Assembly (NCBI RefSeq): GCF_037042905.1 | Contig: NC_087245.1 | Coordinates: forward strand, 868,001-932,000 | DNA length: 64,000 nucleotides | Source: Lytechinus pictus | Taxonomy: Eukaryota | Direction: 5' to 3' | Part shown: positions 1,545-30,016 of the stretch, piece after piece | Numbering within the stretch: the stretch's first letter is position 1 | Layout: each line of letters starts with the position of its first letter | Notes under the pieces: model-generated | Seen by the model: the letters and a program-made list of their open reading frames with translations, nothing else | What the model was told of the DNA's origin: nothing | The model's database searches: none | Position numbers and translations under genes: made by a program

Positions 1545-1705
1545 GGCTACAAACCCATTAGAGGTTCCATCACTGAGCCTCCATACATCTATGTTCATGA
1601 CCACCATTATCAACCAGATGACTCTAGAACAGAGGTCACAATGGGAATCTGCAGCCAAGAAATTTGAATTGATTGGGACATACGCTCAGACTGAGCTGGG
1701 ACATG
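1545..1705 (+). CDS. ACOX1: ACOX1 alternative exon 3, copy A (161 nt)
   Basis: AAG acceptor; ATNPLEVPSLSLHTSMFMTTIINQMTLEQRSQWESAAKKFELIGTYAQTELGH; G|GTACAT donor; phase 2 in, phase 1 out. Confidence 0.9.
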
Positions 1706-2591
1706 GTACATATCAGAATAACAAGATTATCTCTAGACGTTCATGCAGAAAACTGATATTTCATAAGCAGGGGCGGATCCAGGGTTTACCTAGGGGGAAG
1801 CAATTTGAAAAATATGACAAGCAAAATATAAAAAAGAGAAGGTTATCGACAGTCATGGAGGACATTTCCCCCATGTAAAATATTTTGACAAGGCCGCCAA
1901 AATGGGTCACCCCCCCCCCTTGCCCCGTGCCTTGGATCCGTGCCTGGTGATTAGCAAGCATGTATCTATAGAACATTGTTATTTATCATGCCTGTAGACT
2001 AGATTAATATTCAAACCTATTGCCTTTGCTGTGCATTTTATTACACCACTACATGTGTAGTATCTTTTCACCAGTACTCATGCTCTTCATACATGTACAT
2101 GTACCTGTGTTTTGAGTCCATCTGTGCATTTGTTTTTTTAAGTCCTTGTTCTTGTGAGGTTTGGTAAAGTGATATCATAATCATGCATGTATGGATGCTC
2201 AGGTGTGCATCTTTGATGTCTCTATCAACACCCCCTTTTGAAGCCAACAAATGAGCCATGAAGAGACAGTGTCTAGTGTTGAAGTTGTTTGTTTTATAGA
2301 TAAACAACAAATCCCTGTATTTAATAAAAATACATAAGTATCATAAGTATTGTTACGAGTGCAAATGTAAATGATACAATGCAATATTCACATCATCAAC
2401 TATCACCTGATATGTCGACAAAGTGAAGTTAAGTTTCATATGCAATCAAACCTAATGTTTGCTACAATTGATAATGCTAATGCGAGTTATAATTTAATTG
2501 CTACATGTAGGTACCATATTCAAAACAGTCCAAAACTTGGCTATGCCATCACGAACGTACGTATAGCGCCCAGACATCTGTCGGCTGCTAT

Positions 2592-4063
2592 CACTGGCGT
2601 AAATCCGTGTTGATGGGTGGGGGGGATGACTGAAATATTTTGGCATTTTTTTTGCAATCATGTTTTTAGATATGCAAGGAATTGCCATTGATATGTCCAC
2701 AGTGGCGTACCGTGGGTCACGGCATTGGGGGGGCACCAGCAAAAATTTTGAATCACTGAGTGAGTGCGCTAGTGAGCGCGCTCAGTTGCCAGTTATACTG
2801 AGTACCTAATAGAGACATTTTAAGGACGATGTCATTAAACTGATATGTATCTCACTGATCAAATAATGCGAGCGCGAAGCGCGAGCTGAAATTTTTTTAT
2901 ATTCACACCTAAAAAGGGACATTATAGTCAAATTTGTGTAATCATGATAGGTACATGTCTCGCTAAACAATGCGAGCGCGAGCTGAAAAGTTAGATAATT
3001 CAGACCTGAAGTGGGGCATTCTAAGGTTTTTTTGTAAGAATTAACTAGGACCATACGTTTTTCATTAACCAAATGATGCGAGCGCGAAGCGCGAGCTGAA
3101 AATTTTTGATATTATTCAGATCAAAAGGGACATTTCAAGGACCGATTTTAGGAATTTATGAAAAGCAGACATATCTCACCAATCCACTAATCACGGACAG
3201 GAAATGTTTCATATATACGAAGACCTTAACATGGGGCAATCACCTTTTGAGTCGTGAAAAAGAAGCATATGTCACTACATAAAACAATGATAACTCAAGT
3301 GCTAGGAAATATATTTGGTTTATATTGACTTGAAAACGGGATGTTTTAGTACAACAGGATTATATATCACGTTAAACAGACAATGCGAGCACCAGGAACA
3401 ATGAAGACGTAGGCCCTGGGCAAATTATGTTTCATAAAGTTATGATAAATATGTTTCTTATGTAATGTAACATAACATAATTATAATATAATATAACATT
3501 ATAATGAATAATATTTTCGTCTTTCCCACTACGTTTCTCTTCCTTTCTCTCTCTTTTCTCCTTTTCCCCTTTCCGTTTTTTTTGGGTCAGCCGATGGGGG
3601 GGGGGGGGGATGTGCCCCCCATGCCCCCCGTAGTTACGCCACTGTATGTCCATATGGCAAATACCCCTCCAATATTATTATATTTTTTACCCCATGATGG
3701 TTTAATGGTTTTATTAGAGATTACATTTAAAAAAAATTGACATTCCATCTTAATCCCTTTCCAAAGACCCCAACATTGATGAATTGGAAGAAACGGGGGT
3801 TTCTCTTCAATGTTATAATAAGGACATAAGTATTTCGTTTGGAAATGGTGAACTGGCTCTTTATTTGCATTTTATGATTCAATAATATTGTTTTATTTGT
3901 TAAGCGGTATTTAGGAAGAATTTTCACCAATAAAACAATTATCTCTTGTGATTTTTTTTTCATTTCTTTCGTAAAAAGTGGGGGGGATGTTTGTACAGGC
4001 CATCCCCCCCTCGAAAAGTGGGGGGGATATATCCCCCCATCCCCCCCGGGATTTACGCCAGTG
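2592..4063. mobile_element. hAT-like non-autonomous element (outer)
   Basis: TIRs CACTGGCGTAAATCC / GGATTTACGCCAGTG; perfect 8-bp TSD GCTGCTAT (2584-2591 and 4064-4071). Confidence 0.85.
2700..3644. mobile_element. hAT-like non-autonomous element nested in the previous one
   Basis: TIRs CAGTGGCGTA / TACGCCACTG; perfect 8-bp TSD TATGTCCA; internal GCGAGCGCGAAGCGCGAGC repeats. Confidence 0.85.
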
Positions 4064-4867
4064 GCTGCTATTACTGATATGCCAATGAACGTATAGCGTG
4101 CGGTGTTGCCCGACGCGTCACCAAAAACAAATAGCATCGATATTCATGCATTTCTCTAACAATATACATGTACACTATAGTTCCATTTTAAAACAAAAAC
4201 ATAACAATTAATAATTCTGCGGAACTGAACAAATATAACCGTGGTGAATCAAGGAAATCTACAATTTCATTAGCTCGTCATAAAGCAATTATTTCCATTA
4301 ATTCATATTTAAGAAGAAATAAATAGTTATGGTTCAATTCCAATGGTAATTCACTAAAATATTCAATTTAACTAATCCGCATCTATAGTATCCGTAAAAA
4401 GGGTAGGTTGTCACTGCACATCCATAGTACATTGTTAATGATGTTAAGTTTCTCAATAAAGTATTTGATTGCCAGTTCAGCAGTACATGTACATTATACA
4501 TGTACAGTACACATCAACGAAAAACTCTTGAATGCAGTGCATTATATACTTGGTATGAAAAGATTGAAAATTTGTGGCCAAAAAATGGCATGTAGCTTAA
4601 TAGAGCAAAAAAGTAACTCCTGATTTCAGTCAGCAAAAAGGGTCAGGTAAGGTTCCTCTTAATAATGTTATGCAAAGTTAGCTACAATTCCAGTTGAAGC
4701 CTTGCCTATATATGTGCATTCACTGTATTGCACAAGTTTGACTAAAAACTTTTTTTTTATTTGAGCAAATACATTTATTAGAGCTCGATGGGTTTATCTG
4801 AGATTATATTTGTGAAAGTAATTGTTGATGTTTTTACCCACTCTCCCTCATATTTGGTTGGGCACAG

Positions 4868-5028
4868 TTCTGTTCATCGTAATGAGGAGATCTCTTTAGG
4901 CCTTCATGCTTCAATGTTTCTACATTCTGTAACAACTCAGATGACAGAGGAACAGAAGATGTACTGGCTAAAGGCAACCAAATGCTATACTCTCTTAGGA
5001 ACATACGCCCAGACTGAACTTGGACATG
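4868..5028 (+). CDS. ACOX1: ACOX1 alternative exon 3, copy B (161 nt)
   Basis: CAG acceptor; SVHRNEEISLGLHASMFLHSVTTQMTEEQKMYWLKATKCYTLLGTYAQTELGH; G|GTACAC donor; same length and phases as copy A. Confidence 0.88.
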
Positions 5029-6528
5029 GTACACACTGCATATTATCTACAGCTTTCTCCTTTCACGCCATCTTTCATCCCCTCTTCCCCCTCCTCACTT
5101 CAAAATTTAATTGAATCTTGCTGCTGCACCATCATGCTTTCTAATGTACATATTTACATATATTCATATTCAAAGTGGATGTTCATTTATTGTTTTACCA
5201 CCCCCCCATCATACTGAATTGATTGCATTTATAATTCATAATTCTACATTGATGATTTTCTCATATCCATAAATGTATACTATCATCCCATTCATTCCCC
5301 CTTCCTCTTGAGGAGAATGTAAGAAACTGGAAACTTTACCCATGAAAGATTTTCCTTTCTAATATAGTGCTCAAGAATACATGTAAAACAGGACATCAAC
5401 TCTTTCTGTATTCATGTAGCAACAATGAAAATATCTGAGTGATTTTCAATGACAATTTTAATTTGCTACTGTTCCTGTCATCTGATTTGTTGTGGGAAAA
5501 TTGACCAATGAAAATCAGTGAATCATATAAATGATATCCAGAATGCATTGTTGTGAGGCCAGTATTCGCAGAGTCTAAGTGAAGTATTAAGGAGCATTCA
5601 TTTTGTACAAGGGATTACAACAAAATTGTGGATTGAACCATCTGTGCATGCGTGAACTCTGAAGTTTCGTCTGTCCTCCGTCTGTCAGCGGTGCGTTGAA
5701 AATAACGATAAGACAATGGGTTTTCAATCACCTGATACATTTGCGTCAACGTCAGTATGCCCTGTCCTTAAAATCATAAAAATTTATTTGCAGGATGGGA
5801 ACACTGTAGCACCCAACAACACAAGGTATAGGTTTCAACCATTGAAGATGCATCCATCATCCAAGATGAAAATGTCTTTTTATAAAGAGAACTTGAGAGG
5901 ACTGGCTGGTGCATGTGGACCTGACTAATTCTAATTGTTGGGGATTCTAGAACAGAGTGACTGTTTTTTTTGTCTGTTGAGTCTTATAACATTATTCATG
6001 ATGATTATATCTCATTCATCTGGGAAAAAAGCCTCTTCAGTCTGCAGTTCACAGGACATGAACTTTCAGCTTTTTGATCTTCAAGGACAAAGTGACCAGT
6101 GGCCCATTGCAGAAATATCAAACACAAATCCCAAATGCAATCTGTCAATAAAGTTGTGTATGATTTCAACTCTTTCTGCTATGGGCTGCAGGGCACCACT
6201 GCATAAAATAAATCTTTGCCATCCAGTGCCACGTTAACTTTTATAGTAAACATTCACAAAAGCCAATCAGAATCCAGGATTCTTTCAAAGTTAAAATTGA
6301 GATGGCAAAGGCATTATGTAACTTATGCAGCGGGGCCAAGCAGTGAGTCATCATCCTTCTCCACAATGAAAGATGATATTGCAAATATTTTTTAAATGTA
6401 GGCTTCATTGCAGCTGTCCAACTGATGATTCCCTCATTCGTAAAAAGAGATCGTAGTTGCCAGCAACCATCTTCTGTTTTAAAAGCTAAACCTCCTATCC
6501 CATGCTTCTCTGTGTCTCCTTTCTACAG

Positions 6529-6689
6529 GGCTGTACATAAGGCAGAAGAACCAGCCCTTGCCCTCCACTCCACCATGTTCTCACATGCAATCCTCTCTCA
6601 AATGAGTGATGATCAGCATGAAAAATGGCTCAATGCTGCCTTCAACTTCGTCCTTCTCGGAACCTATGCCCAGACAGAGTTAGGCCACG
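6529..6689 (+). CDS. ACOX1: ACOX1 alternative exon 3, copy C (161 nt)
   Basis: Long pyrimidine tract and CAG acceptor; AVHKAEEPALALHSTMFSHAILSQMSDDQHEKWLNAAFNFVLLGTYAQTELGH; G|GTACAA donor; same length and phases. Confidence 0.9.
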
Positions 6690-15030: not shown

Positions 15031-15069
15031 ATACATGAGGGATGAGGATATACATGGGGATATACCCGG

Positions 15070-16310
15070 TACCTCAGGTTTCTGAGAAAGGGATGTAGAG
15101 TTTGGGACATTGGTATGAAGATAAGTTGAATGACATGCATCGAGGGATGCAGATCTATGACAAAGTGGTAGAGTGGTTAAGGAAGGTGGATAGGACATTG
15201 ATCCCTGGGAATGCGAAGGTGTGGTGCTGCCATTGTGGGTTGCTGTCACAGATCATGTGGCAACTGCAGGTGTTGGAGGTGGCAGTTTCCAGAGTTGAGA
15301 GGATGCAGCAGAAGATGAACTTGTTCTACTGGAAGTGGTTAGGTGTTCCAAGAATGTTGATGGATTTGGCATTCTTTTGTAGATCTGGAAAGCTAAGGCT
15401 TCCTATGGCATCAGTGGTAGAAGAGTACAAGGCAGGAAAGGTTAGGTTGGTCATGATGATGAGAGAGTGTGAGGATCAGACAGTAGCAGATTCTAGGCCA
15501 CTGATCCGTACAGGGAGAAAATGGAAGGCAGAAGAGGCTGCGGATGAAGCTGTGACGATGGCTAAGTGGAAGGAGATGCGTGGTGCTGTCCAAGTGGGTA
15601 GGAGCGGGGTAGGGTATCATCCTTGCATGAGATGGTACATGTATGAATGTAGGTTGGCAAAAGCTGCACAGCAGGGTGTGCAGGGCGCATGGACTCATTG
15701 GGAAGAGGTGGAGCAGAGGAATGTCTCCTGGGAATAACTCAGGATGATGTCGTCTGGAGCCGTGCACATTAAGATCAGTTCCAACTTTGATGTCCTGCCA
15801 ACGCCAGTGAATTTGAAGAGGTGGGGTTGTGTGGAGCACGACAGCTGCAAGGTTTGCAGGAAGGCAAGCGGGTCGTTAGAGCATGTCCTGTCAGCTTGTG
15901 GAGGGTTATTGCAAGCTGTACATGGAGCCATAACCAGATTTTATTTTAAGGGAGATCGCAGCTTTGGCAAGGGCTGTGGTAGAGGCTATAAAGAAGAATG
16001 GGCCCCCGAGGGTAAGGGGTATCGAGTTGGTCAAGAAGGGGATAATGTGTAGTAAGACTAGGCAGAGACAATGTGTGGGTGGGTTGTTAGCTGCTGCGGA
16101 CGAGTGGGAGATGCGTGTGGATGAGGGGAAGGCATCTTAGTGCTTTCTAGACAATTCACATCTCTTAGTGTCAACGGGGTGCTGTCCAGGTGATTCCAGC
16201 GTAGCACTGGTCAGCCAGGGGGAGGTGTACAGCACTCAAATGACTGAAATATCAGTGAGCTCTGGTGTGCTGCTGATGACCCGTTGACATCTTGTGGAAT
16301 TTAAGATCTT
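15070..16310 (+). mobile_element. 5'-truncated, decayed non-LTR retrotransposon with restriction-like endonuclease (HERO-like clade)
   Basis: Interrupted ORF with VSEKG.*SLGHWY, KWLGVPR, KLRLP, RTGRKWKAEEA, GRSGVG, DVLPTPVNLKRWG, CCHC knuckle CKVC-8x-HVLSAC and GLL...WEMRVD. Clade assigned from recalled motifs, not from a search. Confidence 0.8.
16168..16290 (+). ncRNA. Candidate rearranged (non-circularly permuted) hammerhead ribozyme in the retrotransposon 3' UTR
   Basis: GUA 16227-16229, GAAA 16246-16249 and CUGAUGA 16273-16279, each flanked by complementary strands for stems I, II and III, plus three further helices (see findings). Confidence 0.65.
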
Positions 16311-16462
16311 TCTGTATATTCTACTGTATGCATGTACTGGTATTTTTGCACTATTGTGCACAAGTACGTCCATGTCTGTGCACACATCACTAGCGAGGTG
16401 TTTGTATGTTTATCAAACACCTGCATATAAGAGTACCTGGAGAAAAGATAAATAGGGCTTCA

Positions 16463-16547
16463 AAACTAGACCACTTTCATATCATGCAAGGCAGAAGATC
16501 AAGCGGCTTGATCTTCTGCCTTGCATGATATGAAAGTGGTCTAGTTT
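16463..16547. repeat. Perfect 85-bp palindrome (42-bp arms, 1-nt spacer)
   Basis: 16463-16504 is the exact reverse complement of 16506-16547. Confidence 0.95.
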
Positions 16548-26219: not shown

Positions 26220-26533
26220 ATTTACTTTAAACTTGAGTGTTTAATATCTCTCATTCTTAATTTTTTGTATGAAATGAAAAGCCAAATGATGTTAAGCATT
26301 TGGCCTTATGAGACAGGTTTGTTTTTCACTACCCATATTCAACTCATAATAATCAGCTCTCTGTGGGCATCACTGGGAAGACAAGATATAACACACAATA
26401 TAAGATATATAAGACAAGGCGTAAATGATGACAAAATTAATACAAAATAAGAAAATTTAAAAAATGATGATCATTAAAGCCACTTTAAAAGTAAATACTA
26501 ATACTTTCCTATTTATTTGCTTGATACACCTAG

Positions 26534-26680
26534 GCCCACTGTCACTTGTACTGTGTGGAGAGCTTCTTTGATGGAGTAAATAGTACTGATGCTTCACAAC
26601 CTGCAGTGGATGCTCTCATGGCTTTGTGTCAGCTCTATGCCATCTTTGGGATCAGCCAAAACAAAGGAGATCTGCTCCAG
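26534..26680 (+). CDS. ACOX1: ACOX1 exon 12 (147 nt)
   Basis: AHCHLYCVESFFDGVNSTDASQPAVDALMALCQLYAIFGISQNKGDLLQ; TAG and GTATGG boundaries. Confidence 0.93.
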
Positions 26681-27455
26681 GTATGGTAGTATAATAAATT
26701 GATTAATGTGGAAGCATTGTGTTTTTTTTACTCTCCTTGAATCAGAGGGTGGTGTCTTTAAATCCCATTGCGGCCGAGCATCCCTTGGCAAGGCGTCAAT
26801 CTACACATTGCCACTCTCCACCCAGGTATGCCTAGAAAAAAAGCTTGAAAACTCTTGTTGTAATACTCCCCAGGGAGTGGTGAAAGTCCAAATATTGTGT
26901 GCAGACAATCCAGGATCCGATGAGTGGGGTAATCATATACCTCTAAACCACCTAGAAACATTGTTCCGATGTAGTAAGCACTATGTATTTGACATGTATA
27001 ATTATTTTGTTATTTGTAATTCTGTAATTCCTGAAGGTTTTCAACAGACTACACTGTTTAGTAGGCAATGGGGTGAAATTTTTTTGATAATTTGCACACA
27101 TTTGAAGAGGTTAAAACATTGAAAATAATAGCTTCCTGCTTCCTTGTGAATTTGTCTGCTCAGAAACAAGATTATTAAAAGGGGAAAGACACTTTGAAAA
27201 CAGCTATGGTATCTTGTAGGGGGATCCAAATCTCTGCCATCAGCCATGTGATTGTAACATAAACAAGCACATGTCACCATTGGCATAATCTAATTTACAC
27301 AACTGCAAAGTTGTTTGATCTCATTCATTCTAATTTACGGATGAAATCAAAATGTTTTCTCAAAATCAAGGAATAAAAGTTTAAATGTGATTTATTTTGG
27401 TCCTAATTCCTCTGAAGCCTTCTTAGCAAATCCTCCATGAAAATATATATTTCAT

Positions 27456-29044
27456 TTTTCTTTGTTTTGGTTTGATATGGTTTCAGGATGGTTATATGAT
27501 TGGTGAGCAGCTAGATATGTTAGAGCGTCAGCTGATAGACCTACTAGCAATCATCAGACCTATTGCTGTAACTCTAGTTGATTTCTATGATATCTAGTAG
27601 TTTTCTTTGTTTTGTTTTGATATGGTTTCAGGATGGTTATATGAATGGTGAGCAGCTAGATATTTTAGAGCGTCAGCTGATAGACCTACTAGCAATCATC
27701 AGACCTATTGCTGTAACTATAGTTGATTTCTATGATATCTAGTAGTTTTCTTTGTTTTGTTTTGATATGGTTTCAGGATGGTTATATGAATGGTGAGCAG
27801 CTAGATATTTTAGAGCGTCAGCTGATAGACCTACTAGCAATCATCAGACCTATTGCTGTAACTATAGTTGATTTCTATGATATCTAGTAGTTTTCTTTGT
27901 TTTGTTTTGATATGGTTTCAGGATGGTTATATGAATGGTGAGCAGCTAGATATTTTAGAGCGTCAGCTGATAGACCTACTAGCAATCATCAGACCTATTG
28001 CTGTAACTATAGTTGATTTCTATGATATCTAGTAGTTTTCTTTGTTTTGTTTTGATATGGTTTCAGGATGGTTATATGAATGGTGAGCAGCTAGATATTT
28101 TAGAGCGTCAGCTGATAGACCTACTAGCAATCATCAGACCTATTGCTGTAACTATAGTTGATTTCTATGATATCTAGTAGTTTTCTTTGTTTTGTTTTGA
28201 TATGGTTTCAGGATGGTTATATGAATGGTGAGCAGCTAGATATGTTAGAGCGTCAGCTGATAGACCTACTAGCAATCATCAGACCTATTGCTGTAACTAT
28301 AGTTGATTTCTATGATATCTAGTAGTTTTCTTTGTTTTGTTTTGATATGGTTTCAGGATGGTTATATGAATGGTGAGCAGCTAGATATGTTAGAGCGTCA
28401 GCTGATAGACCTACTAGCAATCATCAGACCTATTGCTGTAACTATAGTTGATTTCTATGATATCTAGTAGTTTTCTTTGTTTTGTTTTGATATGGTTTCA
28501 GGATGGTTATATGAATGGTGAGCAGCTAGATATTTTAGAGCGTCAGCTGATAGACCTACTAGCAATCATCAGACCTATTGCTGTAACTATAGTTGATTTC
28601 TATGATATCTAGTAGTTTTCTTTGTTTTGTTTTGATATGGTTTCAGGATGGTTATATGAATGGTGAGCAGCTAGATATTTTAGAGCGTCAGCTGATAGAC
28701 CTACTAGCAATCATCAGACCTATTGCTGTAACTATAGTTGATTTCTATGATATCTAGTAGTTTTCTTTGTTTTGTTTTGATATGGTTTCAGGATGGTTAT
28801 ATGAATGGTGAGCAGCTAGATATTTTAGAGCGTCAGCTGATAGACCTACTAGCAATCATCAGACCTATTGCTGTAACTATAGTTGATTTCTATGATATCT
28901 AGTAGTTTTCTTTGTTTTGTTTTGATATGGTTTCAGGATGGTTATATGAATGGTGAGCAGCTAGATATTTTAGAGCGTCAGCTGATAGACCTACTAGCAA
29001 TCATCAGACCTATTGCTGTAACTCTGGTTGATTCTTATGATATC
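27456..29044 (+). repeat. 145-bp tandem array, 11 units, each made of the exon 13 acceptor plus the first 108 coding nt
   Basis: TTTCAG|GATGGT recurs at 27487, 27632 and so on to 28937 (10 x 145). Units are nearly identical; the first ten end in an in-frame TAG. Confidence 0.95.
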
Positions 29045-29143
29045 CCTGATAAGATGCTTTCTTCAGTGCTTGGACGCTATGATGGTAACGTCTATGAGAA
29101 CCTATATGAGTGGGCCAAGAAAGCTCCCCTCAACAAGAAAGAG
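28937..29143 (+). CDS. ACOX1: ACOX1 exon 13 (207 nt; the only complete copy)
   Basis: DGYMNGEQLDILERQLIDLLAIIRPIAVTLVDSYDIPDKMLSSVLGRYDGNVYENLYEWAKKAPLNKKE; CAG and GTAAGC boundaries. Confidence 0.93.
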
Positions 29144-30016
29144 GTAAGCTTGCTAATCATTTATCCCAATTTGTTAGTGTTCTTGTAGATTATATTTAGA
29201 CCACACTTTATGAAGAAAATGAAAAGCTAGTTGGGGAAGAGTCGGATGGTTGGAGTGAGGAGGGAGGATGCTTTAAATCATACAGAATAAACAGAGGTGA
29301 TAAAGGAGATTGCAGAGAGTGTAAAGATGAATCTGGCCACCCCCTATTCCACATGGACAAAATAAGTTACGGGGGTCATTAGGTCAAAGGTCACAGTGGA
29401 CATTTACCTGAAAATATCTCTTTCTGTTGATACCAGTGAAGAACTGTTTTGATGGTTAAAACTTCTGCCATGTATGCTTATTGGATTGACAATGATCTGA
29501 TTATATTTTAGTGTCACAAGGTCAAAGGTCACATATCATTTGAAAATGTTCAAAGTTGCGTGATAATTTCTTGTTTTGGTAGTGGAGGATGCATAGTGGT
29601 TACTGTGTGCAGTCATTAATCCATCTATTTTTTTTCTTTTGGGGGGATTTTTATTTTTTTGTAAAAATGAATTATGCATTTGTCATAGTTGCTTATGAAT
29701 GAATGCAAGAATGGAGGAAACAGAATCACCTCTTAGTGGAATTATAATGTTTTTGAAACATTGAATTTATTTGCAAGTTTCAAAAATTGATGAATGTCAT
29801 TTTTTATGGAAGAGACATTAAATACATTCATGTAATTTGAGATGCATGTAGATTAATCTGATTACTTTTTTTTTGGCCATTTAGTGGTAGGCAAGTATTA
29901 GAAATATTTTAATTAAGATTCATTTTATAATGTAATTGCATGTTATCCATTGTGTACAAACAGTGTAGCATAAACAATCTTAATGTACTTTCACAATTTC
30001 TTTCAATTTTTTCCAG

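Follow-up and report, generated by a model that had tools for sequence, protein, structure and literature searches.

A candidate hammerhead-type ribozyme with an interrupted core strand in the 3′ untranslated region of R2-like retrotransposons of Lytechinus pictus

The closest described ribozymes and the strand order of the motif

Hammerhead ribozymes are reportedly carried by Penelope-like elements and retrozymes, as Cervera and de la Pena are said to have described in 2014, 2016 and 2020 and Lunse et al. in 2017, while HDV-like (hepatitis delta virus-like) ribozymes reportedly lie at the 5′ end of R2 and other retrotransposons that lack long terminal repeats, a finding attributed to Eickbush and Eickbush in 2010 and to Ruminski et al. 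in 2011. The present analysis concerns 64,000 nt of Lytechinus pictus DNA (NC_087245.1, positions 868,001 to 932,000, hereafter the window), where an initial annotation had flagged 123 bases at the 3′ end of a retrotransposon as a hammerhead core in a scrambled strand order. Judged by comparison with their relatives, these bases represent a decayed copy of a hammerhead-type RNA fold that has been conserved. The best explanation for that fold, with a probability of roughly 0.7, is a conserved and doubly pseudoknotted hammerhead-type ribozyme that takes up almost all of the 3′ untranslated region (UTR) in a group of R2-like long interspersed nuclear elements (LINEs).

The motif resembles the hammerheads of Penelope-like elements and retrozymes in that the core sits in a retroelement, in that partial head-to-tail tandems occur with the ribozyme in the repeated end, and in that processing of longer-than-unit RNA is proposed. 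Those motifs belong to canonical type I or minimal type I/III and accompany a different reverse transcriptase (RT) and a GIY-YIG nuclease, whereas the LINE motif accompanies an R2-like RT and has a topology that appears to be new. With the HDV-like ribozymes of R2 it would share a self-cleaving RNA (here predicted) in an R2-type LINE, freeing the element RNA from an upstream co-transcript; it differs in its ribozyme class and in being encoded at the 3′ and not the 5′ end.

Rearranged hammerheads, which the initial annotation had mentioned as reported, are already in print. In the available passages of Eckert, Friedrich, Weinberg and Weinberg (NAR 2023, PMC10085705), non-circular permutations are composed from three blocks, S, G and C, the last of which is an unbroken run of the stem I 3′ strand, the core box (written CUGAnGA) and the stem II 5′ strand. 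According to the same passages, all known hammerhead alignments have at most one or two bases inserted next to CUGANGA, and the authors assumed the blocks to be uninterruptible, so that a split form falls outside their six types (PMC10085705).

In 5′ to 3′ order the LINE motif comprises the 5′ strand of a closing helix (P0), a hairpin (X), the stem II 5′ strand, the 5′ strand of an additional helix (P4), the stem III 3′ strand with U16.1 and A17, and the predicted cleavage site; then the stem I 5′ strand, a linker of 4–9 nt, the stem II 3′ strand with GAAA, the stem III 5′ strand and the P4 3′ strand; and finally the stem I 3′ strand with CUGANGA, the P0 3′ strand and a tail of about 40 nt. 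The fold is doubly pseudoknotted, each of stems I–III crossing the other two. As in types SGC (HRIMA-1), CSG and GCS, all hammerhead core bases are present and pseudoknots replace the three-way junction (PMC10085705, available passages). Two other readings of the helices were ruled out. P0 cannot serve as stem II of a type II hammerhead, its 5′ strand having no GAAA after it, and GAAAC-ACCAG...CUGGU-GU cannot serve as stem III, as H17 would then be G and no stem I would lie next to it.

An ordinary published type-SGC (HRIMA-1-like) hammerhead would account for the order of S, then G, then CUGANGA, for the short linker that leads from stem I to stem II, and for the presence of a helix, here P4, that ties the other sides of these two stems (PMC10085705, available passages). 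This identification is nevertheless very improbable: block C, by definition unbroken in the available text of that paper, is split in the LINE motif, CUGANGA being followed by P0 at zero gap and the stem II 5′ strand lying upstream of block S, right after hairpin X. In families A–C (described below) that strand lies about 64–74 nt upstream of CUGANGA and is not contiguous with it. The hosts differ as well, the LINE motif residing in animal R2-like 3′ UTRs and the published types, in the same passages, in metatranscriptome RNAs found with hairpin ribozymes or in a bacterial locus. The LINE fold may be read as the type-SGC order with its two ends joined and a new opening made within the CUGANGA block, at the step from A9 to G10.1, and a strand order with block C split in this way appears to be new. 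With zero unpaired bases between P0, X and stem II in families A–C, we infer a perfectly flush four-way junction at the A9/G10.1 step. That the order is scrambled and not a circular permutation had been recognized in the initial annotation, which overlooked the position of the stem II 5′ strand upstream of block S and the resulting split of the CUGANGA block.

An Rfam cmscan of the window region, eight family-A loci and the loci L035, L038, L107 and L125 matched no ribozyme family, HDV-like ones included, at E up to 10 (up to 1 in one of the scans), which also speaks against an ordinary type-SGC hammerhead; the lack of a hammerhead match is expected for a non-circular permutation. Full-text literature searches turned up neither a hammerhead in the tails of R2-like LINEs nor a split block C, and no split-block hammerhead is described in the available passages of PMC13725137 and a 2026 preprint.

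Relatives in other element families and covariation of the helices

Searching the genome in six frames with the open reading frame (ORF) of the window copy, which belongs to family A, gave 62 matches, among them long-ORF families at 34–40% identity. Families B and C were found in this way, through protein homology and not through the motif. Protein identity among the three families is 35–50% (50% between B and C). The long-ORF proteins contain Pfam RVT_1 (E about 1e-21) and find their best PDB matches in R2 proteins (9nl3, 9dou), with no significant PDB match for the C-terminal 228 amino acids, the part in which a restriction-enzyme-like endonuclease would be expected. The initial annotation's placement of the motif at the 3′ end of a retrotransposon holds: about 40 nt separate it from the end of a LINE, and the RT of this LINE is nearest to R2 proteins. 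Its HERO label may apply, the hosts of the relatives being compatible with the HERO host range. Close relatives of the protein family are present in amphioxus, many teleosts and scallop, and the motif may therefore be widespread.

The same architecture, with different helix sequences, stands at the ORF end or in the 3′ UTR of all three families. Family B has UUGUUU/AAACAA in stem I, GGCCC/GGGCC in stem II and GGGAGU/ACUCCC in stem III, family C has UCGAGG/CCUCGA, GGCCCG/UGGGCC and UAGCCAU/AUGGCUG in the same positions, and the core box of both is CUGAGGA. The motif fills nearly the whole 3′ UTR: from the predicted cleavage site to the 3′ end there are 101 nt in family C, about 96 in B and about 99 in A, and the ORF stop precedes A17 by 7 nt in family C (inside the motif), by 93–105 nt in family A, and in family B by 129–136 nt in two copies and 341 nt in the copy L037. 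A genome-wide search with the pattern of invariant bases gave 32 matches, of which 5 belong to family A, 11 to B and 16 to C, with none elsewhere; the reversed pattern, run genome-wide as a control, gave 0. In metagenome and viral contigs the same pattern occurs at 173 loci, two of which (L107 and L125) satisfy the helix descriptor given below; both also have P0, X and P4, none of which the descriptor requires, and a family-B-like protein (59–75% identity) is encoded upstream of L125. As a separate observation on the family-C tail, sequencing runs labelled organisms B and C contain a constant 21–29% of the 31-mers sampled from L038:425–800, and part of that stretch would, on these shares, be near-identical in related species.

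Base pairs were counted in an alignment (A1, made with MAFFT) of 16 sequences from five lineages, 7 of the rows being near-identical family-B copies, with the pseudoknotted structure supplied to the counter. Standard pairs occupy 96.7% of 492 cells, against a shuffled mean of 77.7% (0 of 500 shuffles reached the observed value) and against 27.6–49.6% when the 3′ partners were slid by 1–3 columns. Sliding likewise reduced the pairs changed on both sides from 19 of 33 to 3–6, and the covariation score from 0.538 to 0.056–0.133. The covariation across genomic copies that the initial annotation had proposed to look for is thus present, with both-side changes at 8 of 10 pairs in P0, 5 of 6 in stem I, 4 of 6 in stem III and 2 of 5 in stem II. 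Stems I–III are paired in 98.8–99% of cells, and the outer four pairs of X show one-sided changes only (G-U/G-C, U-G/U-A). RNAalifold, which cannot draw pseudoknots, independently returned P0 and stem III. P4 could not be placed in common alignment columns and was counted separately in each lineage; it has 5–9 bp in all five and lies 0–3 nt from the stem II 5′ strand, and its gap on the stem I side is 0–3 nt in 9 of 10 rows and 6 nt in L010, a decayed family-A copy. The pseudoknotted six-helix model is in this manner backed helix by helix.

The core positions C3, G5, A6, G8, A9, G12, A13, A14, A15.1, U16.1 and A17 do not vary in A1, and 15 of 16 rows have U at position 4. CUGANGA follows the stem I 3′ strand without a gap in 15 rows (CCGAGGA in L037), G12-A13-A14-A15.1 lies between the stem II 3′ and stem III 5′ strands, the A15.1-U16.1 pair (columns 72–98) is U-A in 16 of 16 rows, the G10.1-C11.1 pair is kept in 15 of 16, and the U16.1-H17 cleavage site reads GUA or AUA in all lineages. 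Of the hammerhead core positions N7 alone is free, and all four bases are represented there: family A has U, families B and C have G apart from C in a single family-C copy, and L107 and L125 have A. Many of the G-U pairs are compatible with the + (sense) strand only, which argues that the sense strand is the functional one. From these comparisons it is almost certain that a conserved structure is real.

For the window by itself, coincidence, with short motifs and helices falling together in a structured LINE tail, would be harder to dismiss. A descriptor with the order II-5′, III-3′-UH, I-5′, II-3′-GAAA-III-5′, I-3′-CUGANGA (stems of at least 6/5/5 bp, G-U allowed) has exactly one match on both strands of the window, the flagged site, and dinucleotide shuffles of the window gave 0 matches in 60 and 6 in 600, or about 0.01 per window. 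This rate is suggestive for a single window and insufficient for a scan of many windows, in which single matches are to be expected, so that the comparative evidence becomes decisive. The minimum free energy z-score of the + strand is just −1.05, as chance would allow, and that of the − strand is −3.53; since the difference between the strands follows base composition and the G-U pairs mark the sense strand as functional, these scores were set aside. Against chance stand the compensatory changes in P0 and stems I, III and II over five lineages, the 32 pattern matches with none for the reversed control, and the rarity of the descriptor elsewhere (2 of 173 pattern matches, both with helices that were not searched for). 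Coincidence is accordingly scarcely credible and, barring a faulty alignment, already refuted by the pair counts. The judgement of the initial annotation that six helices around a complete core were unlikely by chance is borne out by the recurrence of the architecture in other families and by the covariation.

Predicted activity, role and the non-catalytic alternative

Self-cleavage of intact copies is probable by analogy with known hammerheads. In the geometry proposed here, domain 2 would be stacked on stem II and P0 on X, such that a normal hammerhead core is kept, the strand passing from A9 into P0, from P0 into X, from X into G10.1, and from C11.1 into G12. Cleavage after A17 would be expected to leave a 2′,3′-cyclic phosphate and a 5′-OH about 100 nt before the 3′ end, the chemistry being taken over from that established for hammerheads, and the two products would be held together by P0, stems II and III and P4, which amount to about 25–30 bp in total. 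The predicted ribozyme might process longer-than-unit transcripts, and the motif may double as an RT-binding 3′ UTR fold.

Tandem arrangements of family C bear on such a role. The 5′ region of this family was found at three genome loci (L072, G000:C8:1302416-1305483; L055, G000:C2:40182400-40185250; L265, G000:C1:35551800-35553400), and in 3 of 3 it is arranged head-to-tail and lies immediately against an upstream copy's complete 3′ end, the junction in L265 having a 46-nt deletion between two CACA repeats. The predicted cleavage site of the upstream copy then lies 101 nt before the first base of the downstream copy, and in one tandem the upstream part starts 20 nt after the predicted site. 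With the ribozyme so placed, the motif could act as the 5′ HDV-like ribozymes of R2 or the Penelope-like hammerheads do. Provided that the RNA is active, processing of longer-than-unit transcripts is a tentative assignment, somewhat less likely than not. An attempt to place family-C 5′ ends by a fixed distance in eight copies gave no shared sequence, and that placement was wrong. Two family-C copies of about 91 nt (L263, G000:C20:10744501-591; L264, G000:C2:23177154-244) contain nothing but sequence from beyond the predicted cleavage site, their 5′ ends lying within about 0–9 nt of it.

Several observations weigh against a cutting ribozyme. Two whole helices are inserted next to CUGANGA, where known alignments allow at most one or two bases (PMC10085705, available passages), so that activity may not be assumed, and target-primed reverse transcription requires precisely the 3′ end that a cut about 100 nt away from it would detach. 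A subfamily with CCGAGGA, and hence presumably with an inactive core, may have transposed: this variant (U4→C) is found in the family-B long-ORF copies L037 (G000:C16:26126951-27025) and L039 (G000:C11:8413326-400), which also have a common variant at their last bases. Truncation of 5′ ends at the site is not clearly enriched, with starts 6–9 nt after it in 2 of 35 family-C matches and in 0 of 42 in family B, and all genomic copies are continuous across the predicted cleavage site. The tandem support comes from three old or partial loci of one family, and family B has no clean tandem, two neighbouring 3′ ends on contig C15 being separated by 280 nt of unrelated sequence. The covariation derives from five lineages only, of which L107 and L125 were selected for stems I–III. 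Raw RNA-seq reads on the family-C tail number 3, 7, 6 and 5 (runs X21–X24), too few to show molecule ends.

Part of this evidence would be accommodated by a non-catalytic 3′ UTR fold, either derived from a hammerhead or convergent on one and no longer cutting, that the RT recognizes to start target-primed reverse transcription. Such a fold would cover almost the whole 3′ UTR beside the 3′ end, the site of RNA binding by R2-type proteins (PMC12222951, in the available part), and at this position cleavage seems counterproductive; the U4C variant in two long-ORF copies, the lack of 5′-end enrichment at the site in family B and the interruption of the core at A9/G10.1 are all consistent with it. 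It leaves unexplained, however, why the core bases are fixed at the right junctions over 35–50% protein divergence with N7 alone drifting through four bases, and why the G10.1-C11.1 pair and an NUH site (GUA or AUA) are also kept. The non-catalytic account is for these reasons unlikely, and the ribozyme remains the preferred interpretation. A fuller version of the latter, in which an active ribozyme is conserved across animal R2-like LINE 3′ UTRs as a fourth non-circular type and the first with an interrupted core strand, and in which paired products and unit-length processing serve religation or circularization, is somewhat unlikely as a whole.

Should intact copies cleave, the hammerhead fold would tolerate a break of its core strand at A9/G10.1, a step that adjoins a metal site. 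The search space for natural hammerheads would in that case be wider than assumed, the six published block orders having presumed such a break impossible (PMC10085705, available passages), and existing covariance models and descriptors appear to miss the split-block form entirely, as the lack of an Rfam match indicates. R2-type LINEs would also gain a second ribozyme class, at the 3′ end. This raises the question of how a template is copied if it removes the end from which it is primed, to which held-together products, religation, tandem processing and circular intermediates are possible answers; if religation or circularization were to apply, R2-type LINEs would have an RNA cycle similar to that of Penelope-like elements or retrozymes.

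The window copy and its host gene

The window copy retains every core base and every helix (Table 1). Read on the + strand within window positions 15900–16500, GTA (16227–29), GAAA (16246–49) and CTGATGA (16273–79), together with the six helices of the initial annotation, are all present as written. Five G-U wobbles occur, G10.1-U11.1 among them, and stem II carries a double change from C-G to U-A at 16211/16243. Other family-A copies are more Watson-Crick in stem II (GGCCA/UGGCC), stem III ((A)GGUGU/ACACC(U)) and P4 (GCCAGGG/CCCUGGU), and in them X sits flush between P0 and stem II, the window copy having lost one closing-pair G. The suggestion that T16245, T16250 and T16252 represent C→T decay agrees with C at these positions in 8, 8 and 5 of 9 other aligned family-A copies.

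Table 1. Positions of the element copy and of the strands of its putative ribozyme fold in the window
Feature	Position	Strand	Basis or remark
Family-A R2-like LINE, dead copy, 5′-truncated	15069..16328	+	tblastn; blastn against other copies
P0 5′ strand (closing helix)	16168..16178	+	partner 16280-16290; covaries; predicted by RNAalifold
Hairpin X	16179..16208	+	arms 16179-84 / 16202-07; outer four pairs vary one-sidedly
Stem II 5′ strand (10.1-10.5), GGUCA	16209..16213	+	GGCCA in most copies
P4 5′ strand (la), GCCAGGG	16214..16220	+	partner 16260-16266; links distal ends of stems I and II
Stem III 3′ strand GGUGU (U16.1 = 16228) and A17 (16229)	16224..16229	+	predicted cleavage 16229/16230
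Stem I 5′ strand, CAGCAC	16230..16235	+	5/6 stem I pairs changed on both sides across lineages
Linker L1 (UCAAA), stem I straight to stem II	16236..16240	+	4-9 nt, sequence-variable across lineages
Stem II 3′ strand UGACU, then GAAA (G12-A15.1)	16241..16249	+	UGGCC in other copies
Stem III 5′ strand, AUAUC	16249..16253	+	ACACC in other copies
P4 3′ strand (lb), CUCUGGU	16260..16266	+	partner 16214-16220
Stem I 3′ strand GUGCUG, then CUGAUGA (C3-A9)	16267..16279	+	motif reading, cross-family comparison
P0 3′ strand	16280..16290	+	zero nt after A9 in all five lineages
Element 3′ tail, ~38 nt, without poly(A)	16291..16328	+	end of similarity among copies

Family A comprises about 13 copies in the 812-Mb genome, at 75–90% identity. 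The window copy spans only amino acids 491–784 of the family B/C proteins (tblastn), and a deletion relative to other copies has removed about 345 bp at around 16130 (blastn); similarity among copies stops at 16325–28, and the motif ends about 38 nt before the element 3′ end. In copies with the full motif, CUGANGA, GAAA and U-A17 do not vary apart from the two CCGAGGA copies of family B. Core changes occur in decayed copies, with CUGACAA in L006 and with CGAAA replaced by CAAAA or CGGAA in L006, L008 and L012. In the copies L016/L011 and L017/L013 (G000:C15, at about 15.27 and 15.12 Mb) and L009/L014 (G000:C18), the motif is split by other insertions, one of them TA-flanked and located in P0/X and one of about 290 bp within P4/stem I; the two copies on C15 are inverted duplicates of each other.

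The relic lies in sense within an intron of an acyl-CoA oxidase gene, in agreement with the initial annotation, its flanks holding exons for Pfam Acyl-CoA_ox_N (1570–6649) and ACOX (26510–29146), all on the + strand. Any cutting of this intron by the window copy would be incidental, and a single copy in it is probably without consequence for the host gene.

Three further features of the same region may be recorded. At 16474–16537, 150 nt downstream of the element end, lies a near-perfect palindrome with about 30 bp per arm, microRNA-like in cmscan at scores below gathering thresholds. Three segments on the + strand (1570–1674, 4863–4982 and 6542–6649) match the same positions 76–120 of Acyl-CoA_ox_N and could be duplicated, possibly alternative exons. 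Eleven overlapping open frames at an exact spacing of 145 nt, from 27427 to 29185, suggest a 145-bp tandem repeat between exons of the ACOX domain.

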